60,493 bases of DNA from the NCBI GenBank assembly GCA_037442925.1, contig JBBIPG010000004.1:1-60493 (forward strand), in the 5' to 3' direction. Of this stretch, positions 19,779-60,239 are shown one piece after another (within the stretch, counting starts at the first letter, position 1; the number at the start of each line of letters is the position of its first letter). The position numbers and the translations under genes were made by a program. The notes beneath the pieces are model-generated. The model saw only the letters and a program-made list of their open reading frames with translations, did no database searches and had not been told where the DNA came from. The stretch comes from Candidatus Fraserbacteria bacterium. Its GTDB lineage: Bacteria > Bipolaricaulota > Bipolaricaulia > RBG-16-55-9.

Positions 19779-19784
19779 ACACTC

Positions 19785-20819: not shown

Positions 20820-20854
20820 ATCCCAACGGTTAGCAGTTACAATGAGAGCTAGTC

Positions 20855-28050: not shown

Positions 28051-29261
28051 TGATCTCGGTCGATGAGGCATTCCAGCACTACAAGCTAGAGATTTCTTCA
28101 CTTCCCATTGAAGACGTATCTCTGGACGAGGCGCTGGGCAGAGTATTAGCGAAAGAGCTCTATTCTCAGATAGATCTGCCGCCCTTCCCACAGAGCGCGA
28201 TGGACGGCTATGCGTTGCGGGCGAAAGACACGAAGAATGCAACATCCGAGCGTTCCATTCGACTGCGCCTAACAGGGGAGATTTCTGCAGGACGGCTCAC
28301 CCAGATCCCTTCACTAAAACCTGGAGAAGCCATGCGCATCTTCACGGGTGGCTACGTGCCGCAGGGAGCCGATGCCATCTTGCGCCAAGAAGATGCTCAA
28401 GTGAAAGAGGGTTGGTTGCTTGTGCGCCATGCGCTGCTGTCAGGCACGAATCTTCGAGAGCAGGGTGAGGAGGTTCCAAAGCACGAACGTCTGGCGACAG
28501 CAGGGACGCGACTGACGGCCGGGCATCTGGCCGTCTTTGCGATCGCGGGTGTGGAGCGAGTGAGCATACATCGTGAGCCAAGGATCGCCATACTCACGAC
28601 GGGGGATGAGGTCGTGACGGTGGGGAACCCGCTTGCGCCCGGTGAAGTTTATGATTCAAACACGCCCCTGATAACAAGCTGGCTACGCTCACAAGGCTAT
28701 ACGCACATTGATGCTATGCATTTGCCTGATAATCTCAAGGGCATAGAGAAGGCTCTTGGCGATGCATTTGCGGGGTCAGATCTTGTGATCACAGCAGGTG
28801 GGGTTTCTGTGGGCGAGCGGGATTTCATTATGAAAGCTGCCCAGAGCGTGGGCGTGCGCGAGATCTTCTGGAAAGTTCGACAGAAGCCGGGTAAGCCGCT
28901 CTTCTTTGGGATGCTCAACGAAAAGCCTCTTTTGGGGCTGCCGGGCAACCCCGGCTCCGTGTTTGTCTGTCTGGTCACCCATGTGAGGAGAGTGTTGGAT
29001 CTCTTAGAGGGCGTTTTGCCTCCCGGTCCGATCTTTCATAGGGGCCGATTGCGCGAGCGTCTGGAGTCGGCTTCCACACGGGTATGGTGGGTGCGCTGCC
29101 GCTTAGAATCCTCTCCCGATGGCGGAATGGGGCTTGTGCCGCTGCCGCATCAATCCTCTCACATGATCACGAATCTTACAGAGTGCACGGCCGTAGTCCG
29201 CCTGCCTGAGGGTGTGGGCGCTTTGCAGAGTGGAAGCGTCGTCTCGTGGACCCCTGTATGA
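28047..29261 (+). CDS. moeA: Molybdopterin molybdotransferase
   Basis: SAMDGYA, IFTGG..P.GADA, TTGDE, DSN, GGVSVG..D, QKPGKP, LPGNP. Confidence 0.95.
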   Translation: MMISVDEAFQHYKLEISSLPIEDVSLDEALGRVLAKELYSQIDLPPFPQSAMDGYALRAKDTKNATSERSIRLRLTGEISAGRLTQIPSLKPGEAMRIFTGGYVPQGADAILRQEDAQVKEGWLLVRHALLSGTNLREQGEEVPKHERLATAGTRLTAGHLAVFAIAGVERVSIHREPRIAILTTGDEVVTVGNPLAPGEVYDSNTPLITSWLRSQGYTHIDAMHLPDNLKGIEKALGDAFAGSDLVITAGGVSVGERDFIMKAAQSVGVREIFWKVRQKPGKPLFFGMLNEKPLLGLPGNPGSVFVCLVTHVRRVLDLLEGVLPPGPIFHRGRLRERLESASTRVWWVRCRLESSPDGGMGLVPLPHQSSHMITNLTECTAVVRLPEGVGALQSGSVVSWTPV

Positions 29262-31156: not shown

Positions 31157-32914
31157 TCAGTGCCTGACCACACAGAAGGGCAATCCCCGAATCTCCAGCG
31201 GACGGCTGTTATCGGGCGAGTGCACAACCATGCGCCCTTTTTCAAAATACGGGAGCGCCTTCTGATACTGCTTGGGAGCTCCGGCCCGCTCCGCCATCCC
31301 CTGCTCCATGCCTAACAAGATCCTGGTGCTGACTTGCGAGAGGACAGCCTCGCTCACATCTTGCGGGTTTTGCGTGATGAGCACAAGCCCCAATCTGTTC
31401 TTGCGACCCTGCTTGGCTGCCGTCACGAATTTTTCGGCGATGATGCGGTCTTGCTGGGTTTGAGCTTGCGTGAGGTAGCTATGGGCCTCGTCCACAGCCA
31501 GTATCACGGGATATTTCGCGATGCGTCGCCCCCAATCTGTCTCGATGGCCTTGGTCTTGGCATCGGCGATCAACGACATAACAGCCAGCACGACGACTCG
31601 CTCGCCCTCCGCGCTCAGGTGATTCGTCGGGAAGACGCTCACCTGATCCTCTCTGAAGATACTGTCGTAGAGTTTGGTAATGGAATTGGCTCCCTGATCG
31701 AAGATGTGGGCAAACTGGGGTAGCAGGACCCGTCGGCGGATGGCTCCCAGGGTCGCCTCGTGGATGAAGCCGCTGGCGAGATAAGGCTGCATGCGCGCTT
31801 CCTCTTCGAGGAATCGCCGAAAGGCCAGATACGTCCTGTCTTGTGAGTCTTTGAAGAAGTCTCGGATGAGGCGCTCGAGCGCTGTATACTGGGCTTCATT
31901 CAGCTCTCCTCCGGCGATGAGGTAGGGGAAATCGCCCACCAGCTCAAAGGGGATCATGAAATCGGTGTGGGCATCGCAGCCATGATAAGAACATCCGGCT
32001 TCCACGGCCGAGAAGACGGTCAACTTCTGGCCCACTCCACCCACTTTGGCGCCCACACCTACGAGGTTGTCTCGTTCTTCTGGCGGGACGCTCGGGAACT
32101 CAGGGTTCTCATCGCGGAGTCCCCAATACTCATTCTCAGGATCGATGATCACAAGGCACGGCTTGCGCTGCTCTCCGCCGCGTCGCTCCAGCGTGTACTC
32201 TGAACCCACAATCTGTCTTAGGAAGTTCTTGGCAGTATGCGTCTTACCCCGGCCGCTCATTCCGGCGATCAAGACGTGCGTAAAGATCAGTGGATCGCCC
32301 GTCTTCTTCGCATCGTTGATCAAGTAGTACGGGATCTTAAAGCCTCCGCTGAGCGTGATCGGCTCGCCGTTGACGGCCACATAGCCTAAGAAGAGTCCGT
32401 CATCGGGAAGATCAAGGCCCAGCACCACTTCGTCCTTGCTGGTGACACGCCGGACGAGCGCATTGGGTTTCGGGAGATAGCGGACTTCTGTCGGCAATCC
32501 TTCGGCGCTGATCATCGAGATGGGTTCAAGCTCCGCAAGCTGTATGTATTCGTCCTCTCCGACGGATTCCGCGCTGAGGAGCACGTGCACTTCACTCATG
32601 TCGTCGATGGCGTCACGTTTGCGATATGAGAGTCTCTTGACATACGCAAACAGCTTTTCGTCTCGATAATCGAGTGGGATGACGACATATTGGCCGACAG
32701 CCACATCGTTGCGCTTCCCTTCAGGAATGTAGACTTCAATGCAATGCTCTGTAGTGCTGATGAAAAGCTCCTCCGAGATGGCGACACGCCCGATCTCCTC
32801 GGGTTTGAGAGGTCTAATGCCTGCGCGCTCGTCTTCTGGTGTCATAACCCGTTCGGTAGAGCGCCTGATTCTCTCCAGTTCTTTGTCGAGATCGAATTCT
32901 TCTTGCTTTGCCAT
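31157..32914 (-). CDS. herA: HerA-family DNA translocase/ATPase
   Basis: N-terminal HAS-like region, GMSGRGKT, IIDPENEY, VDEAH, KQGRK..LGLVLITQNP. Confidence 0.85.
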   Translation of the reverse strand: MAKQEEFDLDKELERIRRSTERVMTPEDERAGIRPLKPEEIGRVAISEELFISTTEHCIEVYIPEGKRNDVAVGQYVVIPLDYRDEKLFAYVKRLSYRKRDAIDDMSEVHVLLSAESVGEDEYIQLAELEPISMISAEGLPTEVRYLPKPNALVRRVTSKDEVVLGLDLPDDGLFLGYVAVNGEPITLSGGFKIPYYLINDAKKTGDPLIFTHVLIAGMSGRGKTHTAKNFLRQIVGSEYTLERRGGEQRKPCLVIIDPENEYWGLRDENPEFPSVPPEERDNLVGVGAKVGGVGQKLTVFSAVEAGCSYHGCDAHTDFMIPFELVGDFPYLIAGGELNEAQYTALERLIRDFFKDSQDRTYLAFRRFLEEEARMQPYLASGFIHEATLGAIRRRVLLPQFAHIFDQGANSITKLYDSIFREDQVSVFPTNHLSAEGERVVVLAVMSLIADAKTKAIETDWGRRIAKYPVILAVDEAHSYLTQAQTQQDRIIAEKFVTAAKQGRKNRLGLVLITQNPQDVSEAVLSQVSTRILLGMEQGMAERAGAPKQYQKALPYFEKGRMVVHSPDNSRPLEIRGLPFCVVRH

Positions 32915-32943
32915 GGTCCTCACTCATCCCCCTCGTGGGAGTC

Positions 32944-34212
32944 TCACATCAGTTCACTCCGGCTCTGATTATAGCTCCAATCGAGGTCAATCCCGCAGGC
33001 GCGAATCAACGCGGCACTCTCTTCTTCGGTGATACGGGCTCGGCTGTCCGCTCGCCGGATCGCAGGCGGAACCCCTTTGCCCTGGGCGATCTCTGCCAGG
33101 ATTTGCGCACGTAACCGTTCGGGTTCATGTTTCTCAAAGACGATGCGCGGGCACTCGACTTTCAGCACGGCTTTCACCCTCGGATCGTACACGTAGAAGA
33201 AACAGACGTGGTAAGCGCGGGACGGGTGCATTAATTCAAACGATCCCAGGCGCTCAAAGATATCGAAGCTCTCTACGCTCTGTCCTCGACGCTGCGGAAG
33301 CGAGTAGCCCTCCTGCACGAACCAGTTGGTGTACCCAATGGCATCTTTGGGCGTGTTGCTGAGCACAGCCCGCATGAACTGTGCATCGCTGGACCAGTTG
33401 TGGGATTCTGGCTCCAGCGTGAATTCCAAGAACCATGAGGTGCTCGGGTTTTTGTTGAAGCCCACTATAGCAAACCCACGTGCGGCAAACTCCTCGACAA
33501 CTCGCACGGGCTGAGCCAAGATCTCAATAGCGGGCTTCCACTCCGTCCAGCTTGCTCTTATGCCGTTCTCTTCCGGCCAGATCTGATCTTCTCCGGAAAG
33601 ATAGTAGTAGAGCCCTATGGGGTATAGATTCCCATCCAGAATCCAGAGGCCCTGCTGCGGCTTGAGTTCTTGCCGCATACGTCGAGCGTGATACGACTCA
33701 GCTGCCATTCGGGCAAGTCCCCCCACGACGCGCTCAACCTCGTGCTCCAGATATGTCCGCGAGATATGAATTCTCCAGAAGTGAACGTACTCATCTTGAG
33801 ATGTCTCAGATTTTGCGCCACCTAGATCTGTCCTCTGAGAGTGAGAGACCAGTGAGAGCGAGCGAAAGGCCTCCAATGGGAGGTCTTTGTGGCGAGTATC
33901 TGGATCACTGGACAACACGGCTTGATAGGCGCAGAGCATGGTGCCGTTCTCCAATTGCTGGAGGCGTGTGCTGCCACCATCAATGGCATACACGGGCTCA
34001 TACTCTGGGAACGAATAAGCGGCCAACTGCAATACGCTCTCGGAGCGATACTCCAGAGGAGTGAGTGCTTGTATTGCTCCCTTGAGGTGCAGCTTCTCGA
34101 ACAACTGGCGGGCTTCCTCGCGGTGGTTGGGGCTCAGGCGTTGAACTTGTTCGCCGAAGGCTTTCAGTTGATTTCGTAACGTCTGCTTGGCTTCGTTGGA
34201 GAGCATCCTCAT
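32944..34212 (-). CDS. nurA: NurA-family nuclease
   Basis: YAIDGGS, ESYHA, ILDGNLYP and C-terminal G.G.P.AI..AD..ARI; sits between rad50 and herA. Confidence 0.78.
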   Translation of the reverse strand: MRMLSNEAKQTLRNQLKAFGEQVQRLSPNHREEARQLFEKLHLKGAIQALTPLEYRSESVLQLAAYSFPEYEPVYAIDGGSTRLQQLENGTMLCAYQAVLSSDPDTRHKDLPLEAFRSLSLVSHSQRTDLGGAKSETSQDEYVHFWRIHISRTYLEHEVERVVGGLARMAAESYHARRMRQELKPQQGLWILDGNLYPIGLYYYLSGEDQIWPEENGIRASWTEWKPAIEILAQPVRVVEEFAARGFAIVGFNKNPSTSWFLEFTLEPESHNWSSDAQFMRAVLSNTPKDAIGYTNWFVQEGYSLPQRRGQSVESFDIFERLGSFELMHPSRAYHVCFFYVYDPRVKAVLKVECPRIVFEKHEPERLRAQILAEIAQGKGVPPAIRRADSRARITEEESAALIRACGIDLDWSYNQSRSELM

Positions 34213-47354: not shown

Positions 47355-47705
47355 ATGCGCTCATCCCAACGCTTTCGGCGGGTCGAAAGGCTCAAAGAGA
47401 GCTCGGATTTCGAGAGGATCTATCGCATGGGCAGTCTCGTTCAGAACGAGCATCTTCGCCTATACGTCCTGGATCAAGAGAAAGATGCCCCTGCGCGTTT
47501 GGGTCTCACAGTGACTAAGAGGCTGGGTAAAGCCACCGTTCGCAATCGCCTGAAACGCTTACTCCGCGAGTGGTTTCGCACGCGCAAGGAGTGGTTTCGT
47601 GGCTTGGATCTGGTCATTCAACCCAAGCCTGCGGCCGCACATCTGACCCCCCAAGCCCTGTGGGAGAGCCTGGAGAGACTGGCCGCATCGCTGAAGCTCG
47701 ATTGA
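47355..47705 (+). CDS. rnpA: Ribonuclease P protein component
   Basis: RLK..SDF, RLGLTVTKRLGKATVRNRLKR (RNR motif), DLVI. Confidence 0.92.
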   Translation: MRSSQRFRRVERLKESSDFERIYRMGSLVQNEHLRLYVLDQEKDAPARLGLTVTKRLGKATVRNRLKRLLREWFRTRKEWFRGLDLVIQPKPAAAHLTPQALWESLERLAASLKLD

Positions 47706-47727
47706 ACCATTCCCTGTCGCATTCCAG

Positions 47728-47756
47728 TTGCACGCCAGCTGGATCTTTGCTATACT
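47728..47756 (+). promoter_or_regulatory. sigma70 promoter of greA-lysS
   Basis: TTGCAC-N17-TATACT. Confidence 0.7.
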
Positions 47757-47854
47757 TTGAGCACTTCAATACTGTAAAGCCGATGGCAAATATCCCTGAC
47801 CCCTTCTGTCTGAGACTCCATCTGAAGGGCTTCGAGGGGCACGAAGGAGAGCGT

Positions 47855-48340
47855 ATGGAAGAGTTGGATGAGATTGTCCTGACCAAAGAAGGCTATGAGT
47901 TGAAGAAAAAGGAGTTAGAAGAGTATCGCCGCATTCTGCATGAAGAGATTCCCAAGAGCCTCAAAGTGGCGAAGGAGCATGGCGGTGAGCTCCGTGAGAA
48001 TAAGGAATTCCTCGATATTCAGTCTCAGAAGGAGTTTTATGAGGCGGAGGTTCGCCGCCTGGAGGAACTTCTCGACAGAGCCAAGATCATTGACGAGGCC
48101 CACATCAGTACAAAGACCGTCGGCATCGGCACTCGCGTGACCCTGAAAGACGTATCTCGTAAGGGCCAAGTCACATATGAGGTTGTCAGTCAAGCCGAGG
48201 TCGATTTGGAAGCGAACAAGATCTCGGTCACTTCACCCTTGGGCAGGGTGCTTGTGGGGCGCAAGAAGGGCGAAGTGGTTGAACTGGAGACACCGGCGGG
48301 CAGAATCAAATATAGCATTGTAGGTATTCAGAGAGGCTAA
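47855..48340 (+). CDS. greA: Transcription elongation factor GreA
   Basis: LTKEGY..L..EL, GELRENKEF, ISVTSPLGRVL.G; AAGGAG RBS before ATG 47855. Confidence 0.92.
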   Translation: MEELDEIVLTKEGYELKKKELEEYRRILHEEIPKSLKVAKEHGGELRENKEFLDIQSQKEFYEAEVRRLEELLDRAKIIDEAHISTKTVGIGTRVTLKDVSRKGQVTYEVVSQAEVDLEANKISVTSPLGRVLVGRKKGEVVELETPAGRIKYSIVGIQRG

Positions 48341-48341
48341 T

Positions 48342-49832
48342 GTGTCTGACGCGCTGCGCGAGGATAGACTAAAGAAGCTCGCCGAACTGCGCGCACAGGG
48401 GATCGATCCCTATCCTACCAAGTTTGATCGCACGCATCTGCTTGGGCAGCTCCACGTTCAATTCCAGTTGCTTGTAGCCGGAGAGGAGACCTCCGAGCGG
48501 GTACGCGTGGCCGGCCGGATCATGGCCCGTCGCGTCATGGGGGGAGCCTCCTTCTATGATCTATGCGATGAGAGTGGGCGCATCCAGCTCCACGCCACCC
48601 AAGATCAGCTGGGAGAGGGGCGCTATCGGCTATTCACGGATCTGGAGGTCGGCGACTTCCTGGGTGTGAGCGGGCTGATCTTTCGCACGAAGCGGGGCGA
48701 GCTTTCCATTCGGGTGGAAGAGTACACGATGCTCGCCAAGGCACTGCGCTCCCTGCCTGAAAAATGGCATGGTCTTACGGACGTCGAGACGCGCTATCGC
48801 CAGCGCTATCTGGATCTGATTGCCAACGAAGAGACACGTCTCACGTTCATCACGCGCGCCAAGATCATCACAGCCATGCGCCGTTTCTTAGACGAACATG
48901 GTTTTCTGGAAGTGGAAACGCCCGTTTTGCAACCTCTCTATGGAGGGGCCTTTGCCCGACCTTTCACGACATACCACAACGAGCTGAAGCAGACGCTGTT
49001 TCTGCGCATCTCCGATGAGCTCTATTTGAAACGCTTGATCATCGGTGGCTTCGAGAAGGTGTACGAGATCGGGAAGGACTTTCGTAACGAGGGAATCTCC
49101 TCCGAACACAATCCGGAGTTCACGATGATGGAGTGCTATCAGGCGTACGCGGATTACGAAGATATGATGGCTCTCACAGAAGAGATGTTCTATTTCATCG
49201 CGCAGGAGCTGGGCAAGACAAAGCTCCAGTATCAGGGGCACGAGATCGATCTGACCCCTCCTTGGCGACGCTGGACTTTAAGGGAAGCTATTCAAGAAAA
49301 GACCGGCATCGATATTGAGGAGCATGCCGATCTGGAGAGCCTCAAGTCGGCCCTCCAACCAAGAAGCCTTCACATCGAACTCAAGCCCACTTGGGGGCAG
49401 TTGGTGGACGAGCTGATCAGCGAGTATGTAGAGCCGGAGCTGATTCAACCCACGTTCTTGCTCGATTACCCGGTGGAGCTCTCTCCGCTGGCCAAGATGA
49501 AGCGAAATGTGCCTCATGTGGTCGAGAGATTTGAGCCGTTCATTGGCGGCTTGGAGCTAGGAAATGCCTTCTCTGAGTTGAACGATCCTCTGGATCAACG
49601 AGAGCGGTTTGCCCAGCAAGAGGAGCGCAGACGCAAGGGCGATGAAGAAGCTCAAGTCCTCGATGAGGACTTTCTGCTGGCCATGGAGTACGGCATGCCG
49701 CCCACGGGCGGGTTGGGCATCGGCGTGGATCGGCTGACGATGCTCTTCACGAATTCAGACTCGATTCGCGAGGTCATCCTGTTTCCCGCTCTGCGCCCCA
49801 AGCAAAAGGAAAAAGAAGAAGAAAGGAGTTGA
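48342..49832 (+). CDS. lysS: Lysine--tRNA ligase (class II)
   Basis: GIDPYP, RYRQRYLDL, EVETP, GGAFARPF, FRNEG, HNPEF, YGMPPTGGLGIG.DR. Confidence 0.97.
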   Translation: MSDALREDRLKKLAELRAQGIDPYPTKFDRTHLLGQLHVQFQLLVAGEETSERVRVAGRIMARRVMGGASFYDLCDESGRIQLHATQDQLGEGRYRLFTDLEVGDFLGVSGLIFRTKRGELSIRVEEYTMLAKALRSLPEKWHGLTDVETRYRQRYLDLIANEETRLTFITRAKIITAMRRFLDEHGFLEVETPVLQPLYGGAFARPFTTYHNELKQTLFLRISDELYLKRLIIGGFEKVYEIGKDFRNEGISSEHNPEFTMMECYQAYADYEDMMALTEEMFYFIAQELGKTKLQYQGHEIDLTPPWRRWTLREAIQEKTGIDIEEHADLESLKSALQPRSLHIELKPTWGQLVDELISEYVEPELIQPTFLLDYPVELSPLAKMKRNVPHVVERFEPFIGGLELGNAFSELNDPLDQRERFAQQEERRRKGDEEAQVLDEDFLLAMEYGMPPTGGLGIGVDRLTMLFTNSDSIREVILFPALRPKQKEKEEERS

Positions 49833-49839
49833 TGGCTGC

Positions 49840-51000
49840 GTGAGCCATCGGGACGTAGCTGTCATTGGCGTTGGATACACGAACTTCAATAGCGTTACGC
49901 CCGAAGTCAACTGGAAAGAACTCATGTTCGAAGCGGCACAGAAAGCCTATCAAGACGCAGGGATCGATCCACGCCGGGAGGTCGATAGCTTCATCACCTG
50001 TGCCGAGGACTTCTGGGAGGGCTTTTCGATCTTCGACGAGTTCACGCCGGATCAATTGGGCGCTGCGCTTCGCCCCATGCACACTGTCCCTGGTGATGGA
50101 CTGCAGGGCTTGGCCAACGCCTACATGCAGATCAAGACCGGACTCTTTGACATCGTCGTTGTCGAGGCCCACAGCAAGATCTCGGAGCTTCTCACCTATG
50201 AAGATGTCGTTCAGCTCTCGTTCGACCCCATCTATGAAGCTCCGCTATCGAATGGAGTCCACCCCTACTATGTAGCCGGCCTGGAGATGAGAGCGTATCT
50301 GGAAGCCACGGGAACGACGGAGGAAGAGTGCGCGGCGGTTGTCGTTCAGAACAAGCGAAATGCTTTCTTGAATCCCTTGGCAGAGTTCGAGTGCGAGCTG
50401 GATGTGGAGAGCGTGATGAGATCCGACTATGCCTTTGATCCCTTGAAGGCCGTGGAGATCGCTCCGCGAGCGGATGGCGCGATTGTGTTCGTATTGGCAG
50501 GCGGAGAGATCGCTCGTGAACTGACAGATGTGCCCGTCTATCTGGAAGGGATCGGCTGGTGTTCTGAATCACCCTGGATCGCCTCGCGTAGCTCGGATGC
50601 CAGCTATGCGAAGCGGGCGGCTCAGATGGCATATCAACAAGCGGGTCTTGAGAATACTCAACTCATAGACATCGCTGAAGTGGACGATCAATTTGCTTTC
50701 AAAGCACTTCAGCATCTGGAGGCTCTGGGGCTCGCGCGCCCTGGCGAGGCAGGCTTCCTCATGGTCGAGGGAGCATTTGGCCCCCAAGGGCAGTTGGCTG
50801 TAAACCCCAGCGGGGGCTCTTTGGGCTGTGGGCATCTGATGGAAGCTTCCGGCCTGGCGAGAGCTCTCGAGATCGTGCTTCAACTGCGAGGGGAAGCGGG
50901 GCAAAGGCAAGTGGAAGATGCCATGATCGGCGTCGCTCAATCTTGGCGAGGTCTGCCTCATGGGACCGGAGCGGTCGCGGTGTTCTCACGGAGGGAATGA
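49840..51000 (+). CDS. Thiolase-fold protein 1 (SCP2/archaeal type) lacking the nucleophilic Cys
   Basis: VAVIGVG, VQNKRNAFLNP, ADGAIVFVL, EVDDQF, VNPSGGSLGCGH; TVPGDGLQG in place of VExACASG. Confidence 0.85.
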   Translation: MSHRDVAVIGVGYTNFNSVTPEVNWKELMFEAAQKAYQDAGIDPRREVDSFITCAEDFWEGFSIFDEFTPDQLGAALRPMHTVPGDGLQGLANAYMQIKTGLFDIVVVEAHSKISELLTYEDVVQLSFDPIYEAPLSNGVHPYYVAGLEMRAYLEATGTTEEECAAVVVQNKRNAFLNPLAEFECELDVESVMRSDYAFDPLKAVEIAPRADGAIVFVLAGGEIARELTDVPVYLEGIGWCSESPWIASRSSDASYAKRAAQMAYQQAGLENTQLIDIAEVDDQFAFKALQHLEALGLARPGEAGFLMVEGAFGPQGQLAVNPSGGSLGCGHLMEASGLARALEIVLQLRGEAGQRQVEDAMIGVAQSWRGLPHGTGAVAVFSRRE

Positions 51001-52187
51001 CCATGAATCTCGGGAAAATTCATAAAGATGTTGCGGTAGTCGGCGCGGGGATGACTCTCTTCTCTCGGCGTCTGCAAGAGACGGGCAAGGAGATGAGCTG
51101 GGAAGCCGCTCAGATGGCCCTCGATCAGGCGGGCCTCTCACTAGATGACATAGATGCCGTGATCATGGGCTCCGCGCCGGATGCCTTCGATGGGGTTCAC
51201 AAGAAGGGTGACTGGCTGCTCGATGGCGCTGGCGGAACCAACAGACCTTACATGCGGGTCTACACCGGTGGCGGCACGGCCGTCTTCGCCCCCATCGCGG
51301 GCTGGTGGCACGTGGCCTCCGGGTTGTTCGAGAAAGTTCTTGTGCTTTGTGAAGAGAAGATGAGCAGCTGCATGCCGCACGCGCAGAGCGCCTTCGCCCA
51401 CATCTGGGACCCCATACTGGATCGCCCGCTCAAGCCCAATCTCGTCTGGATCTTCTCCATGGAGATGCAGCGGTACATGCATACATATGACGTGCGCTAT
51501 GAGGACATCGCGCTGGTTGCTGTCAAGAACAAGCGCAACGCGGTAGGCCATCCCTGTGCTCAATTGGCCGATCCGGACATCACCCTAGATGACGTGCTCA
51601 CTTCAGAACCCATGGCACTGCCGGTGCGACGGCTCGATATCAGCCCGCCGTCGGATGGGGCGGCGGCTGTGGTGCTCGTGAGTGAAGATGTGGCCTATGA
51701 ACTGACGAATGAGCCCGTCTGGATTGATGGTGTGGGCTGGTGTATTGATTCTACTATGTGGACGAATCGCGATCTGGCCTTTCCCAAATTCGTGGCCCAT
51801 GCGGCGCGAATGGCCTACGAGATGGCCGGAATCAAAAACCCGCGTAAAGAGATCGACATTGCGGAACCGTACGATCCCTTCGACTACAAAGAACTTCAGC
51901 ACCTCGAAGCGCTGGGTCTCGCTGATCCCGGTCAAGCAGCCATCATGACCCGAGAGGGCAAGACGCAGCGCGATGGCGAACTCCCCGTCTGTCCCAGTGG
52001 AGGACTTCTGGGGGTGGGAAACCCCATCGCGGCCACGCTCGGGATCAAAGTAGGAGAACTCTTCTGGCAGCTCTCTGGGCAAGCGGGTGCCCGTCAAGTG
52101 CCTGGTGATCCAGCCGTGGGCGTGGCACAGGCGTGGGGCGACTTGATGCAGTTTAGCAGTGTGATCGTGATGAGGAGGCGCTCATGA
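50997..52187 (+). CDS. Thiolase-fold protein 2 lacking the nucleophilic Cys
   Basis: VAVVGAG, VKNKRNAVGHP, SDGAAAVVL, EPYDPF, PSGGLLGVGNP; RVYTGGGTA in place of VExACASG; ATGA overlap with gene 1. Confidence 0.85.
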   Translation: MTMNLGKIHKDVAVVGAGMTLFSRRLQETGKEMSWEAAQMALDQAGLSLDDIDAVIMGSAPDAFDGVHKKGDWLLDGAGGTNRPYMRVYTGGGTAVFAPIAGWWHVASGLFEKVLVLCEEKMSSCMPHAQSAFAHIWDPILDRPLKPNLVWIFSMEMQRYMHTYDVRYEDIALVAVKNKRNAVGHPCAQLADPDITLDDVLTSEPMALPVRRLDISPPSDGAAAVVLVSEDVAYELTNEPVWIDGVGWCIDSTMWTNRDLAFPKFVAHAARMAYEMAGIKNPRKEIDIAEPYDPFDYKELQHLEALGLADPGQAAIMTREGKTQRDGELPVCPSGGLLGVGNPIAATLGIKVGELFWQLSGQAGARQVPGDPAVGVAQAWGDLMQFSSVIVMRRRS

Positions 52188-52726
52188 ACCAAGCGATCAA
52201 ACCCAAGGGGAGGTCCCTTTCAACTGAACAGATGAAGCAAGTTCCGCACGTGATCGCACGGCCTCAGGCCAAGTACGCCTGGGCGGCGGGCGTGGCAATG
52301 AGTCACTTTTTAGAAGGGCTCAAACAAGGCAAGATCCTCGGCCGCCGATGTATTGCGTGCGAGAGGGTGCTTGTACCTCCCAGAATGTTCTGTGAGCGAT
52401 GCTATCGCACGACGGATGGGTGGGTAGAGCTACCCGGCACCGGCGTGATCGAGACGTTTTCGATCTCGTACATCGACACGAACGCGAATCGCATTAAGGA
52501 CCCCATCTTTGTCGGGGTGTTGGCCTTCGATGGTGCGCCCCCGCATTGTGGGATCATGCACTACTTCGGAGAAGTCTCTCCAGAGGAGATCCATATCGGG
52601 ATGCCGGTCGAGCCCCTCTGGAAGCCGGAAAGCGAGCGTGTGGGAGCCATCACAGACATCAAGTACTTCCGCCCTCGTGAAGGAATTCCGTCTAAGAGAA
52701 TCAGCCAGCGCCGTAAGCGAGGTTGA
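52184..52726 (+). CDS. DUF35-type Zn-ribbon/OB-fold protein 1
   Basis: CIAC...PPRMFCERC; G.IETFS; IGMPVEPLWK..R.GAITDIKYFRP. Confidence 0.9.
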   Translation: MNQAIKPKGRSLSTEQMKQVPHVIARPQAKYAWAAGVAMSHFLEGLKQGKILGRRCIACERVLVPPRMFCERCYRTTDGWVELPGTGVIETFSISYIDTNANRIKDPIFVGVLAFDGAPPHCGIMHYFGEVSPEEIHIGMPVEPLWKPESERVGAITDIKYFRPREGIPSKRISQRRKRG

Positions 52727-52732
52727 GAGGCG

Positions 52733-53218
52733 ATGACATTCAGCGAGAAGTTTCAGAGGACGACGGAGATGAAACACTGGCTGGGCGACATGGAGGTCGA
52801 TCACTTCCACTACACGGCCGGCGTCGCAGGCGAAAGATTTTTCATCGCGCTGCGGGATCGAGGAGTGATCCTCGGAGCCCGATGCGCGCCTTGTGGGATC
52901 ACGTACGTGCCACCCCGTATCTACTGTGAGCATTGTTTCGCAGAACTGAAAGAGGACGCCTACCAGGAGGTCGGCCCGCGCGGCTGGGTGCGTGCCTTCA
53001 CCATCGCTCGCCTCGGCAAAGACGGGCACCCACTCACGGAGCCTGAGATATTGGCCGTGATTGACTTCGGGTCAGATTCAACGGGCTTCTTGCACAAGCT
53101 AAGTGGAGTTGCACCCGAAGAAGTGAGGGTAGGCTTGGAAGTGGAAGCTCTACTCAAGCCCAAGGCCCAGCGCGAGGGGCGCATCACGGACATTGAGCAT
53201 TTCCGGCCGGTGGCGTAG
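52733..53218 (+). CDS. DUF35-type Zn-ribbon/OB-fold protein 2
   Basis: CAPC...PPRIYCEHC; R.GRITDIEHFRP. Confidence 0.9.
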   Translation: MTFSEKFQRTTEMKHWLGDMEVDHFHYTAGVAGERFFIALRDRGVILGARCAPCGITYVPPRIYCEHCFAELKEDAYQEVGPRGWVRAFTIARLGKDGHPLTEPEILAVIDFGSDSTGFLHKLSGVAPEEVRVGLEVEALLKPKAQREGRITDIEHFRPVA

Positions 53219-53323: not shown

Positions 53324-55981
53324 GTGTTACGAATCAAGCCCGGTGCGATCAGCATGCTCTGGATTGGCGTGCTCTCTGCGTTCGTCATGCTGGGAATGGC
53401 CCAGTCCGTCCAACTGACTTCCGATACTGATCCGGACCAGAATTCCACAAAAATTCAGAGCATGCTGCGCGGATTGATCGGTAGCGTCTCAGGAGCGACC
53501 TCTGAGGATCTTCCGCTCATCCCTCGATTCTTCAGTTTCTCCCAATCCTCGGAGCTAGAGCAGCTGCTGGCTCTTAAAGCGAGAGGGGATCGAGTGCAAG
53601 TCGTCATCGAAGTGGCGCCACAAGCCGAGAGCCTCCAGATTGCAGAGCGGGTGAGAGATTTCGGCGGGGAAGTCGAGTTGACTCAGGAGAATTGGGTGCA
53701 AGCGGTCGTCCCCGTTGATGAATTGGAGAGCCTCGCGGCGATGCCGCAAGTTCGCTTCGTTCGCTTGCCGGTCCGTCCGTTCTTGATGCAGGGCTCCATT
53801 CGTAGCGAAGGTCTGACCATGGTCGGCTCTCCGGGTTGGAATGAGAGTGGTTTCGCGGGTCAAGGCGTCACAGTGGCCCTCGTGGACCCCGGAGGGTTCC
53901 GGGGGTATGAGAGTTTGCTGGGCCGGGAGCTACCCGCCCGCGAGAAGGTGACACCGCGCTCCTTCCGTTCAGATAAGCAGATGTACGAGCCCGATGCCTC
54001 GCGCGGAGCTCAAGTTCATGGGACGGCAACGGCAGAGGTCGTCCACGACGTTGCCCCGGAAGCAGAGCTCTATCTGGTGATGTTCTCAACTGACGTCGAG
54101 TTTCGCAGCGCCATCAACTGGCTGGTCGAACAGAAAGTGGATGTGATCAACACGTCGCTTGGATTCCCGTCGGGTTGTTTCCGCGAGGGCGGAGGGATCT
54201 TTGAGCCCCAGTTCGTGAAAGCTCACGAGAATGGGATCGCCTGGGCTACGGCAGCCGGCAATGAGGGAGACATTCACTGGGAAGGAACCTGGCGCGATTC
54301 CGATGGTGACAATCTATACAATTATACGGACACCGACGAGGGGAACACCCTCGACGTTCAGCTCATCGAGTACCAGTATCCCGACGGCCGACGGGTGGCT
54401 ACGTCAATCATTGATGTTCTCTTCAGCTGGGATGCCTCTTGTACGGATGCTTCGGATGACTACGAAGTGGTCGTTCTGCGAGAGCAAGAGGGCCAACTCA
54501 AGCCGCTTGCCCCTTGGGATGGCTCGGTAGGGCAACTGAGTGATTGGATCTGGAGGCCCGGCGTTCCCATCAAAGAGACCCTTGCCAGCGAGGATTTTGA
54601 TGTAAGTCGAGTAGGGCAGATCGAACGGTATCATCTAGCCATTCGTAAGAAGCGAGCCGATGCCGCCGACTCTCGCTTTGAGATGCTCATCATGTGTCCC
54701 TGCAATCGAATTGAGTACCTTGTAGCTCAGGGCAGCGTAGGCATTACGGAGCCTTCCATCTCGGCCAATGTGATCACAGTGGGAGCCGTGCATCATTCCT
54801 CACGCTGTTCGCGCAGCCTCTGTCCCGATGGGAGGTTGCTCTTCTACTCCAGCCAGGGGCTGACAAAGGATGGTCGCATCAAGCCGGATCTCGCGGCGCC
54901 CAGTCACGTCTCCACTAGTAGCTATGGTCGCTGGACAGGCGAGGGTGGCGGGCGAAATCCCGGCTTCACAGGCACATCAGCGGCTTCTCCACATGTCGCC
55001 GGCGCGGCAGCTCTTGTAAAACAAGCCTTCCCAGAATACACGCCCGATCAGATCAAAGAGTTTCTCGAAGATCGGGCAGAGGACATGGCTGAGCCCGGCA
55101 AGGACAATCGCTACGGGGCAGGCATTCTGCTCTTGGGTCAGCCTCCGGTTCAGCCTGCTGCCCCAACAATTACTGGCATCGAGCCTGCCGGTGGCCTGCA
55201 AGGGAGTGAGATTCAAGCGACGATCAGCGGCACAAATCTTGCAGGTGCCACGTCCGTTACATTCAGTGGGACAGGAGTGACGGCTGCTCTTCGAGAGGGC
55301 GGCACGGCTACAACGTTGCCCATCACCATCACGGTTGCTTCTGACGCATCTCCTGGGTCTCGAACCTTCACCGTCACGACTCCAGCTGGGACAGCATCCA
55401 GCGGAGAAATCACATTCACCGTGCTCGAAGCCCCTCAGATTCAAGTGGAGCCCGAAGCCCTGAGCTTCAGTGTACCAGCGTCCAATGGCGACCCTCCCGC
55501 ACAGACGTTGCGCATTACGAACTCCGGTGGTGGGGCTCTCAACTGGCAGGCATCTACAGACGTTCCTTGGCTGCGCTTGAGTGCCACGGAGGGAACTGCT
55601 CCATCTGAGCTTCAAGTGTCGGTGGTGCTTGCGGAAGAAGATCTAACCGCAGGCAGCTATGAAGGTCGGATCACTATCACGGCTTCGGATGCACTGAACA
55701 GTCCCCTGGTTGTGCCGGTGACGCTCACGCTTAAGGCCCCGCCGGGAGAGCTGATCGCACTGGTCTTCAAGCAGCTGGAGTTCGTCAAACCCGAAGATTG
55801 GGAGCGAACTCTAAGAGAAGGCTGTGTCGTCTATACCAACATCAGTGGTGATTCGAGCATCATGCGCGTGACGCTGCCGGATGACTCCATCCGTGAGTTC
55901 GAGATCCCGGCAGGCCATGAAGTGATCGTCTGCGGGGACGTGGTGCATATTGACACTCGACCTCAAGCCGCCTCCGGTTAG
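53324..55981 (+). CDS. Secreted S8 subtilase with propeptide, IPT/TIG-like and BACON-like domains
   Basis: Signal peptide; triad VALVDPG, HGTATA, GTSAASPHVAG; oxyanion AAGNE; PTITGIEP..G..G and L.W...DVPWL domains; AGGAG RBS. Confidence 0.92.
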   Translation: MLRIKPGAISMLWIGVLSAFVMLGMAQSVQLTSDTDPDQNSTKIQSMLRGLIGSVSGATSEDLPLIPRFFSFSQSSELEQLLALKARGDRVQVVIEVAPQAESLQIAERVRDFGGEVELTQENWVQAVVPVDELESLAAMPQVRFVRLPVRPFLMQGSIRSEGLTMVGSPGWNESGFAGQGVTVALVDPGGFRGYESLLGRELPAREKVTPRSFRSDKQMYEPDASRGAQVHGTATAEVVHDVAPEAELYLVMFSTDVEFRSAINWLVEQKVDVINTSLGFPSGCFREGGGIFEPQFVKAHENGIAWATAAGNEGDIHWEGTWRDSDGDNLYNYTDTDEGNTLDVQLIEYQYPDGRRVATSIIDVLFSWDASCTDASDDYEVVVLREQEGQLKPLAPWDGSVGQLSDWIWRPGVPIKETLASEDFDVSRVGQIERYHLAIRKKRADAADSRFEMLIMCPCNRIEYLVAQGSVGITEPSISANVITVGAVHHSSRCSRSLCPDGRLLFYSSQGLTKDGRIKPDLAAPSHVSTSSYGRWTGEGGGRNPGFTGTSAASPHVAGAAALVKQAFPEYTPDQIKEFLEDRAEDMAEPGKDNRYGAGILLLGQPPVQPAAPTITGIEPAGGLQGSEIQATISGTNLAGATSVTFSGTGVTAALREGGTATTLPITITVASDASPGSRTFTVTTPAGTASSGEITFTVLEAPQIQVEPEALSFSVPASNGDPPAQTLRITNSGGGALNWQASTDVPWLRLSATEGTAPSELQVSVVLAEEDLTAGSYEGRITITASDALNSPLVVPVTLTLKAPPGELIALVFKQLEFVKPEDWERTLREGCVVYTNISGDSSIMRVTLPDDSIREFEIPAGHEVIVCGDVVHIDTRPQAASG

Positions 55982-56392: not shown

Positions 56393-57331
56393 GTGAAGAC
56401 AAGAGAGCTCATCGCCGGTCTTCTGCAAGGTGATCCCAGGGCGTTGGCCAAGCTCATCAGCTTGATCGAAGATCGCGAGCCAGGCTTTTCTTCCATTATT
56501 GATGAGGTTTACCCTCACACGGGAAGAGCTTATCGCATAGGCATCACTGGGCCGCCGGGGGCGGGCAAGAGTACGCTTGTTGACAAGCTTGTCCCATTCT
56601 TTCGTAAAGAGGGGCGGGAGGTCGGGATCTTGGCGTGTGACCCGACGAGCCCGTTTTCAGGGGGCGCGTTGCTGGGGGATCGCGTGCGCATGCAAGGACT
56701 CTACAGCGATGGAGGAGTATTCATTCGGAGCCTTGCAACGCGGGGAAGTCTGGGAGGACTCTCGGAAGTGGCCTATGAAGTGTCGCTGCTCTTGGAAGCA
56801 GCGGGTTATGATCTCATCTTCTTTGAGACGATCGGTGTAGGCCAAGTGGAGGTTGACATCATTGAGGCGGCGGACACGGTTGTGGTCGTCGTTGTGCCTC
56901 AGTCAGGCGATGCCATTCAAGCACTTAAGGCAGGGCTTATGGAAATCGCTGACGTGTTTGTCGTGAACAAGGCCGATCAAGAGGGAGCGGAGTTTGCGGT
57001 TCAATCACTGCAACTGGCTCTGCGACCTGAAGAGTCATCCAGTGCTTGGATTCCTCCGATTGTGAAGACGGTGGCCACAGGAGGAGAGGGCGTGGATCGT
57101 TTGAAGGAGGCTCTCAATCGCCATCGAGGGCTTTTAGGTGGGGAAGGTCTACGCCAACGTCATCTATCCCGATTGCGGAGGTTCATTCAGCGAGTTGTGG
57201 AGGAGCAGTTGAAGAGAGAGCTTTGGGATGAGCACGGACAGGAGATGCTGGCAAGACAAGTGGAGAGAATCCTCCGGGGCGAGAGTGGGCCGTATCAAAT
57301 CGCCGAGGAGATCCGGCAGAAGCTCAAATGA
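56393..57331 (+). CDS. meaB: MeaB/ArgK-family GTPase
   Basis: ITGPPGAGKST, DPTSPFSGGALLGDRVRM, FIRS.ATRG.LGG, ETIGVGQ, NKAD. Confidence 0.93.
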   Translation: MKTRELIAGLLQGDPRALAKLISLIEDREPGFSSIIDEVYPHTGRAYRIGITGPPGAGKSTLVDKLVPFFRKEGREVGILACDPTSPFSGGALLGDRVRMQGLYSDGGVFIRSLATRGSLGGLSEVAYEVSLLLEAAGYDLIFFETIGVGQVEVDIIEAADTVVVVVVPQSGDAIQALKAGLMEIADVFVVNKADQEGAEFAVQSLQLALRPEESSSAWIPPIVKTVATGGEGVDRLKEALNRHRGLLGGEGLRQRHLSRLRRFIQRVVEEQLKRELWDEHGQEMLARQVERILRGESGPYQIAEEIRQKLK

Positions 57332-59031: not shown

Positions 59032-59078
59032 GCACGATGCCAGTTTCGGCAAAGGCGAAGGCCATCCAGAAAGGAGAC

Positions 59079-60239
59079 ATGCTCGTGTTTTCTCACCGTG
59101 ATCTAGAGAAGCTGCTTACAACTGAATCAAACCCCCTCTTGAGTGTGTATCTGAACACGGACCCTTCGCAAGACCCTAAGGGTTCGTATCGTATCTGGTT
59201 GAAGGATGCGCTGAAGACCCTGGAGGGAAGGGTCGAAGGCTCGGAGCAGAAGCGCTTCCGCGAGGCTGCAGATCACGTCCATGCTCATATGAAAGAGTTT
59301 CGCGCTCAAGGGAAATCTTGGGTGGCTTTTGTGGGGAATGGGCTTGTTGAGCAATACGATTTACGGGTCCCCGTGGAGAACGAGGTCCAGTGGGGGCGAC
59401 CAGAACTTACCCAGCTGGCGTGGCTTTTAGAGGAGTATCGCCCTTACGGGATTGTTTTGGTCGACTCCGAGAAACTGCGTTTTTTCATCGTGGTGATGAA
59501 CGAGATTTATGAGATGAACGACCGGACGCTGGAACTGGACACAAGCGGCTGGCGAAGGAAGGAGATATCACCCCCTTCGCAGCCTCGGGGAACTCCCGTG
59601 CGCGGATCGGTTCGCGGTGGCAACGAGCGAGACGCTTTCGTCGAGCGCGTGAGAGTCCAGACCGAAAAGTTCTGGAGGGAAGCGTCCGGTGTGCTACGTC
59701 GTCTCAACGAGCTTCATCAAGCGGAGAAGCTCGTGCTGGGAGGGCCCAAAGCCATTCGGGAGCGTTTTATGCAGACGCTGGGAGCAGAGAGCAGTAGAGT
59801 CATCGGGCAGATCTCAGTACCCTTAGAGGCTTCGCCTTCGGCTGTGCTAGCGGAGAGCGTGTCTGTGATCCAGACTCATGAGCGCACGCAAGAAATACAG
59901 GTTGTCGAAGAGCTTCTGCGACGGGCATCGACCAGCGATCGGGCGGGTGTGGGGCTACTGCCAACGCTCAAAGCTTTGCAGGAGAGTCGTGTGGAGCGAG
60001 TCATCGTCAATAGGCGTCTGGAAGCGACCCTCAACGAGTGTGTCACTTGTGGGTATGCTTTTGACAGATCGGAAGAGAAATGTCCGAACTGCTCGTCGAC
60101 GCAAGTGAAGCGCACCTCGCTGCGAGCCCTCTTGCCGGTGCTCGTCCGCCGCCATGGGGCTAGGCTGGAGATTATCCGGCGTCCGGCGGCAGAGAAGCTC
60201 GCTCCTCACGGGGGTATCGGGGCATTGTGGCGATATTAG
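59079..60239 (+). CDS. Bacterial aeRF1/pelota-superfamily (baeRF-like) protein with C-terminal Zn ribbon
   Basis: LSVYLNTDP, IVLVDSEKLR, LVLGGP, GL..TL.ALQE.RVERVIV, CVTC..CPNC, GGIGALWRY; AGGAG RBS before ATG 59079. Confidence 0.8.
   Translation: MLVFSHRDLEKLLTTESNPLLSVYLNTDPSQDPKGSYRIWLKDALKTLEGRVEGSEQKRFREAADHVHAHMKEFRAQGKSWVAFVGNGLVEQYDLRVPVENEVQWGRPELTQLAWLLEEYRPYGIVLVDSEKLRFFIVVMNEIYEMNDRTLELDTSGWRRKEISPPSQPRGTPVRGSVRGGNERDAFVERVRVQTEKFWREASGVLRRLNELHQAEKLVLGGPKAIRERFMQTLGAESSRVIGQISVPLEASPSAVLAESVSVIQTHERTQEIQVVEELLRRASTSDRAGVGLLPTLKALQESRVERVIVNRRLEATLNECVTCGYAFDRSEEKCPNCSSTQVKRTSLRALLPVLVRRHGARLEIIRRPAAEKLAPHGGIGALWRY

Follow-up and report, generated by a model that had tools for sequence, protein, structure and literature searches.

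Background

Complexes between thiolase-fold and DUF35 proteins constitute an emerging toolbox for C–C bond chemistry, which is represented in the mevalonate pathway, in archaeal fatty-acid synthesis, by BbsAB, and among the Friedel-Crafts acylases and the steroid aldolases. The present study concerns a four-gene cassette (hereafter the quartet) that encodes two thiolase-fold proteins (T1 and T2) and two DUF35 proteins (D1 and D2) in a 60,493-nucleotide stretch of DNA from Candidatus Fraserbacteria bacterium (assembly GCA_037442925.1, contig JBBIPG010000004.1; hereafter the window). A first-pass annotation of the window had taken the cassette for a heteromeric acyl-CoA aldolase or lyase of unknown pathway. 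The residues at the aligned catalytic positions firmly indicate that the quartet is not a thiolase, and its function is firmly placed in short-chain acyl-CoA metabolism.

The closest described systems differ mainly in the residues of the thiolase active site. The HDCF motif of the SCP2 thiolases, which supplies a His and the acid/base Cys, is equivalent to YDCF in the SCP2-thiolase-like protein of Trypanosoma brucei (TbSLP), YDCY in Sal and YDHF in Ltp2 (PMC12329534). Sal, the bile-acid side-chain aldolase of Comamonas testosteroni, has an SCP2-thiolase fold and is bound to the DUF35 domain of Shy (PDB 9MYR); its base is Tyr302 and its acid Cys304, the nucleophile position is taken by Gly89, the backbone of which contacts the β-hydroxyl group, and the oxyanion hole consists of Gln161 and the backbone of Gly391 (PMC12329534). 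In Ltp2, the steroid aldolase of Thermomonospora curvata that is bound to the DUF35 domain of ChsH2 (PDB 6OK1), Tyr294 is the base, His296 adds to the oxyanion hole and Tyr344, outside the motif, is the acid (PMC12329534). Ltp2 cleaves a β-hydroxyacyl-CoA to a carbonyl compound and an acyl-CoA, downstream of an acyl-CoA dehydrogenase (ACAD) in its pathway; ACAD genes also neighbour the quartet.

The archaeal DUF35-dependent thiolases are nearest to T1 and T2 by sequence and fold (TM 0.81-0.88) and share with the quartet an archaeal origin, free-standing DUF35 proteins and the same Pfam architecture, but they retain the nucleophile Cys, HDCF and GHP and are homodimers. The archaeal thiolase/HMGCS/DUF35 complex of the mevalonate pathway differs further by the presence of HMGCS, no HMG_CoA_synt domain being found in T1 or T2. 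TbSLP (PDB 5AB4-7), which binds acetoacetyl- and malonyl-CoA, resembles T2 in the lack of the nucleophile Cys and in the Tyr of its motif, but it is a homomeric eukaryotic protein that keeps the motif Cys and has no DUF35 partner. Searches of the accessible literature library returned no published description of the quartet, of PRK06065/06066 (the NCBIfam models for T2 and T1) or of the Sulfolobus genes SSO2061-2063.

Methods

Motif positions in T1 and T2 were taken from alignment to the thiolase of P. furiosus (7YVY) and to the M. thermolithotrophicus thiolase of the thiolase/HMGCS/DUF35 complex (6ESQ). Neighbouring genes other than BKACE were counted by tblastn of neighbour queries against 88 fetched loci and the window. 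A Pfam census took in the three open reading frames (ORFs) that flank the quartet on each side, for 44 diverse loci, and the BKACE count was obtained from census set 2 (22 loci).

Organisation of the quartet

Four plus-strand ORFs in the order T1-T2-D1-D2 occupy the region assigned to the cassette by the first-pass annotation (Table 1), and its description of the genes as overlapping or near-adjacent is borne out by the junctions. T1 starts with GTG, 11 nt downstream of AAGGAG (49823-28) and 7 nt after the lysS stop codon (49830-32). The T1 stop codon (50998-51000) is separated by 2 nt from the ATG of T2 at 51003, which is preceded 7 nt upstream by GGAGGG (50990-50995); an alternative TTG start at 50943 merely yields the longest ORF and was rejected in favour of this ATG. 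The T2 stop and the D1 start overlap as ATGA (52184-87), and 6 nt lie between the D1 stop (52724-26) and the ATG of D2. The quartet genes are, by this junction spacing, translationally coupled.

The scanned region yielded no promoter-like site and fewer terminator-like sites than expected by chance, and the GC content is unremarkable. Upstream lie lysS and, just before it, greA, a context that is not conserved in other lineages; in the window, the quartet is probably co-transcribed with these housekeeping genes. The window sequence turns up in DNA metagenomes only. A role related to translation, prompted by the greA-lysS context and by the DUF35 protein Trf (Sso2509), was considered and rejected, because the flanks vary and the recurrent neighbours are all acyl-CoA enzymes.

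The Pfam domains agree with the composition of two thiolase-fold and two DUF35 proteins. T1 and T2 each consist of Thiolase_N and Thiolase_C_1, whereas D1 and D2 match zf-ChsH2 and OB_ChsH2_C (DUF35; PF12172 and PF01796) above the cut-offs, with 38.0 and 46.8 bits for D1 and 31.9 and 34.1 bits for D2. Sequence identity is 36% between T1 and T2 and also between D1 and D2, and the cassette thus represents a thiolase+DUF35 pair that has undergone internal duplication. T2 is a member of the NCBIfam equivalog NF004721 (PRK06065), with 651.7 bits against a cut-off of 455, while the best model of T1 by far is NF004722 (PRK06066), for which it falls just below the cut-off (481.9 vs 516 bits). Both models are named only 'thiolase domain-containing protein' and carry no functional annotation.

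Active site of T2

The motifs quoted in the first-pass annotation are present in the proteins (V83-PGDGLQG and G329-CGH in T1; Y87-TGGGTA, Y290-DPF and G339-N340-P in T2), and its view of the two proteins as Cys-less is sustained by comparison with 7YVY, 6ESQ and the canonical thiolases of related loci, neither protein of the window having a Cys at the nucleophile or the HDCF position. In T2, the C-A-S motif of the nucleophile is replaced by G-G-T, with G90 in 78 of 78 orthologues, HDCF by Y-D-P-F, likewise without exception, and GHP by G-N-P, with N340 in the entire set. The invariant residues comprise G89, G90 and T92; E288, Y290, D291, P292 and F293; G339, N340 and P341; and W378, G379 and D380, while position 289 is Pro in 77/78. 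E154 and Y158 are invariant in a 19-sequence alignment, and their conservation in the set of 78 sequences is 95% or higher. As a control, 11 of the 16 other thiolase-like ORFs of the fetched loci, all Bathyarchaeia, show C-[AS]-S, HDCF and GHP in the joint alignment. Two other Cys residues of T2 were considered as alternative nucleophiles and rejected because they are not invariant: Cys330 is found in only 72/78 sequences, with Ser in Sulfolobus, and Cys185 in only 61/78, with Tyr in Sulfolobus.

In the absence of a nucleophile Cys, an acid/base Cys and the His, the ping-pong mechanism of the thiolases would be impossible for the complex. The quartet proteins are named 'acetyl-CoA acetyltransferase' or 'acetyl-CoA C-acetyltransferase' in public records, and their fold and Pfam domains are of the thiolase type. 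All T2 sequences nevertheless lack the nucleophile Cys, the HDCF Cys and the GHP His, the Cys positions of the window T1 are likewise without Cys, and the curated NCBI models do not go beyond the thiolase domain in their names. The sequences thus effectively refute the reading of T1 and T2 as ordinary acetoacetyl-CoA thiolases (acetyl-CoA C-acetyltransferases), to which we assign next to no probability.

The loss of every classical catalytic residue would also be compatible with a catalytically dead scaffold, an acyl-CoA-binding platform that organises or regulates ACAD, mutase and CoA-transferase enzymes. DUF35/thiolase cores are able to recruit HMGCS and the Saci_1104 and Saci_1085 proteins (Sulfolobus KR/HCD), and the partner genes of the quartet differ among lineages. 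T2, however, is the most constrained of the subunits: over the 66 loci in which all four genes are present, mean pairwise identity is 74% for T2, tighter than for most enzymes, 59% for both T1 and D1, and 46% for D2. Y290, D291, N340, E154 and the G379 loop are kept across Bacteria and Archaea, and the site is conserved even in the distant paralogue T2' (31-33% identity), which keeps G89, G90, T92, Y290, P292, F293, N340, W378 and G379 of T2. Constrained polar residues at the former catalytic positions form the pattern of an active site rather than of a surface scaffold. The scaffold is therefore regarded as quite unlikely, and T2 as probably the catalytic subunit, judging from its pattern of conservation.

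The T1 subunit

The former active site of T1 is less uniform. At the nucleophile position, the window protein has either Pro84-Gly-Asp86 or a three-residue deletion, depending on the register, with no Cys in either case; the Gly proposed for this position in both proteins by the first-pass annotation therefore holds for G90 of T2, but in T1 the column is Pro84 or deleted and Gly85 stands beside it. Across the T1 family (n=70), the column contains Ser in 25, Cys in 23 and Thr in 15 sequences, the Cys forms being found mainly in Asgard archaea and marine Thermoplasmatota. HDCF is replaced by (D/E/H)-D-(R/L/K/Q)-F in the family and by DDQF, as part of V-D-D-Q-F, in the window. At the GHP position, the window T1 has retained the His in GCGH, as had been noted, but this is a lineage-specific feature: His occurs in two of the 70 sequences, one of them the window T1, compared with Asn in 46, Tyr in 11 and Asp in 10. 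The Gly of the oxyanion loop is replaced by Arg370, and the positions of the former active site both vary and covary; residues 284/332, for example, are R-D, R-N, L-Y or Q-H according to lineage.

Certain other residues of T1 are invariant, namely Cys54 (70/70), Asp86, His111, His141 and several acidic residues. In the AlphaFold2 (AF2) model of T1 (pLDDT 79.5, pTM 0.87), which is informative at the level of the fold, strand Nβ2 (E50-54) terminates in Cys54, which coincides with or adjoins the canonical 'G[NH]' Gly, and the Nβ3/Nα3 elbow (E80-83, H88-99), the usual site of the nucleophile, comes after it. The search for a structurally equivalent Cys thus yielded none in T2, but in the T1 model an invariant Cys54 is predicted to lie beside the nucleophilic elbow, where it might serve as a relocated nucleophile.

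On this basis, the quartet could be a non-canonical thiolase or acyltransferase in which Cys54, possibly with Asp86, takes the 'AtoB' role and converts acetoacetyl-CoA or a short 3-oxoacyl-CoA and CoA to two acyl-CoAs. Cys54 and Asp86 are among the few residues common to T1 and the 32%-identical paralogue T1', and in several loci with CoA-transferase A/B, an AtoE-like short-chain fatty acid transporter and ACAD, the quartet stands at the place where a thiolase is expected. T1, on the other hand, is devoid of all other catalytic residues of thiolases, the remaining positions of its site co-vary, Arg370 replaces the oxyanion-loop Gly, and the nearness of Cys54 to the site follows from fold topology alone. 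Moreover, it is T2 rather than T1 that is strongly constrained, and canonical thiolase/DUF35 pairs are frequently encoded next door. We therefore consider a relocated thiol unlikely, albeit with some weight.

The DUF35 subunits

D1 and D2 possess classical C-x2-C … C-x2-C ribbons and no hydratase domain. The Cys ligands of D1 are conserved in 76 sequences, and the four zinc Cys of D2 are also kept. The best PDB match of both is 3irb_A (for D2 with an E-value of 6e-20 over residues 6-125), followed for D1 by the DUF35 domain of ChsH2 (6ok1_B), 6esq_E and the DUF35 domain of Shy (9myr_B). 3IRB is the structure of Sulfolobus Sso2064, the founding DUF35 structure, and has the zinc ribbon, OB fold and additional N-terminal helices seen in D2. 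A 94%-identical relative of Sso2064 is the fourth gene of the quartet in Sulfolobus sp. E5-1-F, and on this sequence evidence Sso2064 is a D2-type subunit of the Sulfolobales quartet. It was, in contrast, solved alone as a homodimer, and its T1, T2 and D1 partners were not recognised; the structure paper proposed a generic acyl-CoA-binding role and does not mention the quartet. Partial mirror-tree correlations are higher for D1 with T2 than with T1 (r 0.48 vs 0.34) and for D2 with T1 than with T2 (0.55 vs 0.32), which tentatively suggests that D1 pairs with T2 and D2 with T1.

Distribution and evolution

A T2-specific pattern scan identified T2 relatives in at least 544 species-representative genomes, most of them archaeal. 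Homologues of 78-95% identity to T2 occur in Ca. Fraserbacteria, Bipolaricaulota/Acetothermia and Armatimonadota, the window T2 being about 95% identical to that of RBG_16_55_9, and homologues of 68-75% identity in Thermoplasmatota, Promethearchaeota/Hodarchaeota/Hermodarchaeota, Bathyarchaeia, Geoglobus/Ferroglobus, Halodesulfurarchaeum and Geoarchaeota; Archaeoglobi and Sulfolobales are also among the archaeal groups with T2 relatives. The order T1-T2-D1-D2 is observed in every sufficiently long locus among 84 fetched, with flanks that differ by lineage, and its recurrence is far beyond chance. The distance matrices of the four proteins correlate with one another (r 0.81-0.91).

T1 and T2 are each monophyletic by neighbour joining, and the bacterial sequences make up a single clade within the archaeal ones for T1 and T2 alike, which points to an ancient duplication and to one archaeal-to-bacterial transfer of the operon. 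In Sulfolobus sp. E5-1-F, an ACAD gene precedes the quartet (ACAD-T1-T2-D1-D2), and genes for acyl-CoA synthetases and a 2-oxoacid:ferredoxin oxidoreductase (OFOR) lie on the flanks; Sulfolobus T1 and T2 retain all the hallmark residues. From adjacent locus numbering, we infer that SSO2061, which is listed as 'acetyl-CoA acetyltransferase' and changes in level after viral infection, belongs to the quartet.

A second, paralogous Cys-less system of two thiolase-fold and two DUF35 proteins, in the order DUF35-T1'-T2'-DUF35, is located no more than a few kb from the quartet in Hodarchaeota, other Asgard archaea and some Thermoplasmatota. T2' carries the motifs GGTT, YSPF and N, and T1' keeps the equivalents of C54, D57, D86 and D129. 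A 679-aa protein (P0016) that appeared to be a natural T1-T2 fusion was rejected as such, since its T1 part is short of about 60 residues at the C-terminus and its T2 part of about 55 at the N-terminus; with about 320 N-terminal T1 residues joined to a shortened T2, it is probably a chimeric assembly or the result of an internal deletion between paralogues.

Genomic context

The recurrent neighbours of the quartet (Table 1) are acyl-CoA enzymes and point to C4-C6 short or branched acyl-CoA and acetoacetate metabolism, and not to steroids, as the theme of the context; the pathway is thus no longer wholly unknown, as it was in the first-pass annotation. In Thermoplasmatota and Bathyarchaeia, the genes of the mutase, the B12-binding subunit and MeaB lie downstream on the strand of the quartet. 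MeaB, with or without the mutase, is found 3' of the quartet on the same strand in loci of Thermoplasmatota, Bathyarchaeia, Fraserbacteria and Acetothermia, and stands alone in the window, in Acetothermia and in a further locus from Fraserbacteria (L005). In the window it is a context gene, 3 kb downstream of the quartet and outside the proposed complex; tblastn revealed no acyl-CoA mutase in the 60-kb window, which also encodes no ACAD or CoA-transferase.

The Tyr and Arg of methylmalonyl-CoA mutase (MCM) bind the carboxylate of the substrate, and isobutyryl-CoA mutase (ICM) has Phe and Gln at these positions. In all 26 informative copies of the neighbour mutase, Phe is present at the position of MCM Tyr89, Gln at that of MCM Arg207 and Ala at that of Asp117 of 2-hydroxyisobutyryl-CoA mutase. 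This Phe/Gln signature marks the enzyme as ICM-like, for uncharged C4/C5 acyl groups. The protein fits the Pfam methylmalonyl-CoA mutase family, yet it stays below the NCBIfam cut-off for MCM (632.7 vs 876), and its best PDB match is 2-hydroxyisobutyryl-CoA mutase (4R3U); by these sequence features it is probably an uncharacterised archaeal ICM-like enzyme.

The mutase also bears on the possibility that the quartet decarboxylates a β-carboxy or β-keto thioester or acid (malonyl- or methylmalonyl-CoA, acetoacetate) by means of an oxyanion hole without a nucleophile, as in KS-Q/CLF domains and TbSLP. The neighbourhood of MCM-like, MeaB and CoA-transferase genes resembled the sbm-ygfD-ygfG-ygfH operon of E. 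coli. TbSLP, which lacks the nucleophile Cys and has a YDCF motif, does decarboxylate malonyl-CoA (PMC12329534). Its kcat, however, is merely 0.005 s-1, and Sal has no such activity (PMC12329534). The neighbour mutase is not an MCM by residues or score, and no carboxylase or epimerase is recurrent in the neighbour census. The non-carboxylate signature of all the informative mutases led to the downgrading of the methylmalonyl-CoA decarboxylase idea, and decarboxylation in general is considered improbable.

In Asgard and related loci, the gene immediately downstream of D2, encoded on the other strand, is a BKACE (Kce-like, below the NCBIfam cut-offs), which links the quartet to acetoacetate-forming chemistry. 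In Geoglobus, an AtoE-like transporter and a family-III CoA-transferase are found beside it. OFORs and canonical thiolase/DUF35 pairs are further recurrent neighbours; as such pairs often adjoin the quartet, it is not redundant with them. The ACAD, CoA-transferase, BKACE and ligase neighbours gave no match above cut-off to NCBIfam models with specific-family names.

Proposed complex and reaction

T1, T2, D1 and D2 almost certainly form one predicted complex, given their strict co-occurrence and order, translational coupling and correlated evolution, and the heteromeric assembly of two thiolase-fold and two DUF35 proteins put forward in the first-pass annotation is upheld by the same features. 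The complex would be an obligate hetero-oligomer with a T1·T2 heterodimer of anciently duplicated subunits and a dedicated DUF35 protein on each flank, parallel to the αββα architecture of Sal–Shy(DUF35), Ltp2–ChsH2(DUF35) and the archaeal thiolase/DUF35 complexes. Its stoichiometry, reaction type and substrate are what we infer.

The top Foldseek matches of T1 and T2 are 6ESQ, 7YVY, SCP2 thiolases and BbsB (TM 0.78-0.88). Sal ranks 27th for T2 and 30th for T1, and this low rank suggests that the Cys was lost independently in T1/T2. Ltp2 (6ok1) ranks 31st for T2 and 23rd-24th for T1, and the cut-off of 419 bits of the Ltp2-like NCBIfam model NF005924 (PRK07937) is far above the scores of T1 (125.7) and T2 (95.3); T1 and T2 are outside both the Ltp2 and the Sal clades. 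At the level of residues, T2 shares with Sal the Gly at the nucleophile position (G90) and the backbone Gly in the oxyanion loop (G379), which correspond to Sal Gly89 and Gly391 by motif position and not by structural overlay, the Tyr that opens (H/Y)DxF, and an amide at the position of the thiolase His (Gln352 in Sal, Asn340 in T2), and thiolysis is possible for neither. With Ltp2 the quartet shares a Cys-less thiolase fold associated with DUF35 and the Tyr base of YDxF. The likeness to Ltp2 suggested earlier therefore extends to the Tyr at the catalytic-base position, but not to the clade or to the acids, both of the known catalytic acids being replaced. The His of YDHF is also Pro292 in T2. 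Both known aldolases differ from the quartet in their DUF35 partners: that of Shy is a C3H1 C-terminal domain of a hydratase and that of Ltp2 is supplied by the MaoC hydratase ChsH2, whereas D1 and D2 are free-standing 4-Cys proteins. Sal is in addition a homodimer in a steroid context, in contrast to the proposed T1+T2 heteromer in a short-chain acyl-CoA context.

Our preferred reading, which is tentative and given somewhat less than an even chance, is a heteromeric non-thiolytic C–C lyase or aldolase, in which T2 cleaves or forms the Cα–Cβ bond of a short β-hydroxyacyl-CoA by retro-aldol/aldol chemistry. Tyr290, which occupies the catalytic-base position known from Ltp2, Sal and the SCP2-thiolase-like proteins, would deprotonate the β-hydroxyl group, and the enolate of acetyl- or propionyl-CoA would be held in an oxyanion hole with G379, the backbone of Gly90 being kept, while Asn340 would stand in place of the thiolase His. 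The proton donor would be neither the Cys of Sal nor the Tyr of Ltp2; a candidate is Glu154, which may correspond to Sal Gln161 by its position four residues before the conserved Tyr158. T1 would be an indispensable partner, with its canonical site degenerated and the invariant Cys54/Asp86 pair kept. Likely substrates would be short or branched C4-C6 compounds, such as 3-hydroxybutyryl-CoA, HMG-CoA-like tertiary β-hydroxyacyl-CoAs and 3-hydroxy-2-methylacyl-CoAs, supplied by the neighbouring ACAD, ICM-like mutase, CoA-transferase and BKACE enzymes, and the products would be acetyl-CoA and an aldehyde, a ketone or a β-keto acid.

Several observations weigh against this lyase or aldolase. The Sal variants C304A, C304S and C304H are all dead (PMC12329534), and this essential Cys is the invariant Pro292 in T2; the acid Tyr344 of Ltp2 is Asn340. 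The AF2 model of T2 (pLDDT 66.5) is of low confidence exactly in the active-site loops, and the predicted location of Cys54 in T1 offers a different chemistry. Among the neighbours, enoyl-CoA hydratase and 3HCDH are rare (each 2/124 neighbouring ORFs in the Pfam census), enoyl-CoA hydratase is neither fused to the DUF35 proteins nor regularly beside them, unlike in ChsH2 and Shy, and no aldehyde-handling enzyme is recurrent in the census. Thus, of the earlier proposal of an acyl-CoA aldolase or lyase in place of a thiolase, the exclusion of canonical thiolases stands, whereas its positive part is weakened by the missing acids of the known aldolases and by the invariance of T1 Cys54.

A doubtful extension of the lyase/aldolase reading is a machine with two active sites, T1 (Cys54/Asp86) and T2 (Tyr290/Glu154/Asn340), that would carry out successive steps, such as a hydration or an acyl transfer and then a retro-aldol cleavage, and would shorten or build short acyl-CoAs independently of thiolysis. 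Such a machine would be of ancient origin and common among Archaea, Asgard and Sulfolobales included, where it would exist in two or more paralogous versions; a single transfer would have brought it to Bipolaricaulota, Fraserbacteria and Armatimonadota.

Other features of the window

The ORF directly after D2 encodes a protein with an N-terminal hydrophobic segment, a putative secreted subtilase-type peptidase by its motifs; it is unrelated to the cassette and absent from the loci of other lineages. Elsewhere, the window carries a HerA-like (DUF87) ATPase gene next to one for a NurA nuclease, which make up a DNA end-resection pair of archaeal type in bacterial DNA; an ORF with bacterial archaeo-eukaryotic release-factor-like domains (baeRF family 10 and family 5); a molybdenum hydroxylase cluster of the xanthine/CO dehydrogenase family, with a MoCo-binding large subunit, an FAD subunit and XdhC; and moeA.

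Table 1. Features of the window and of related loci (L with a number designates a locus other than the window)
Feature	Coordinates	Strand	Occurrence	Description
T1	49840..51000	+		386-aa SCP2-type thiolase-fold protein, canonical active site degenerate
T2	51003..52187	+		394-aa SCP2-type thiolase-fold protein, most conserved subunit
D1	52184..52726	+		180-aa DUF35 protein, 4-Cys zinc ribbon and OB fold, N-terminal extension
D2	52733..53218	+		161-aa DUF35 protein, orthologue-type of Sulfolobus Sso2064 (PDB 3IRB) including N-terminal helices
lysS	48342-49832			Upstream of the quartet
greA	47570-48340			Just upstream of lysS
ORF after D2	53324-55981			885 aa
MeaB of the window	56393..57331	+		MeaB/ArgK-type G-protein chaperone of B12-dependent acyl-CoA mutases; Pfam MeaB 296 bits
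HerA-like ATPase and NurA	31157-34212	-		Adjacent genes
Release-factor-like ORF	59037-60239			baeRF domains
Molybdenum hydroxylase cluster	17358-21940
moeA	28047-29261
Acyl-CoA mutase large subunit			27 loci	Neighbour
B12-binding subunit			21 loci	Neighbour
MeaB			23 loci	Neighbour
ACAD			30 loci	Neighbour
Family-I CoA-transferase A and B			14 and 15 loci	Neighbours
Acyl-CoA synthetases			17 loci	Neighbours
BKACE	L028:7316-8203; L031:7276-8175; L043:7344-8243; also L044, L065, L075, L077	- (L028, L031, L043)	10/22 loci of census set 2	Mainly Asgard loci
Neighbour mutase, examples	L086:4007-7030; L074:8466-10583		26 loci in all	ICM-like (probable)
Paralogous T1'/T2' system	L039:7289-10683; L065:9211-11155; L034:7277-10540; L075:9905-11167; L002:14866-17162	- (L039)

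Implications

What appears new in the quartet, judged from its proteins, is the heteromeric architecture of two thiolase-fold and two DUF35 subunits and an active-site solution that matches none described. It would add such a 2+2 member to the thiolase-fold/DUF35 complexes, with an active site unlike the three known solutions (Cys/Cys/His, Tyr/Tyr and Tyr/Cys). With about 70% identity between domains of life, the quartet ranks with the most highly conserved of the uncharacterised archaeal acyl-CoA modules. It adjoins an ICM-like B12 mutase that carries the annotation of a methylmalonyl-CoA mutase and is itself just as uncharacterised. The occurrence of the quartet in the genetically tractable Sulfolobales and the existing subunit structure 3IRB make its function directly testable. 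The systematic mis-annotation as thiolase distorts metabolic models of Asgard archaea, Bathyarchaeia, Thermoplasmatota and candidate bacterial phyla; if the reading with two active sites is true, the 'acetyl-CoA acetyltransferase' labels in hundreds of genomes would be wrong, and likewise the reconstructions of β-oxidation, butyrate and mevalonate metabolism.

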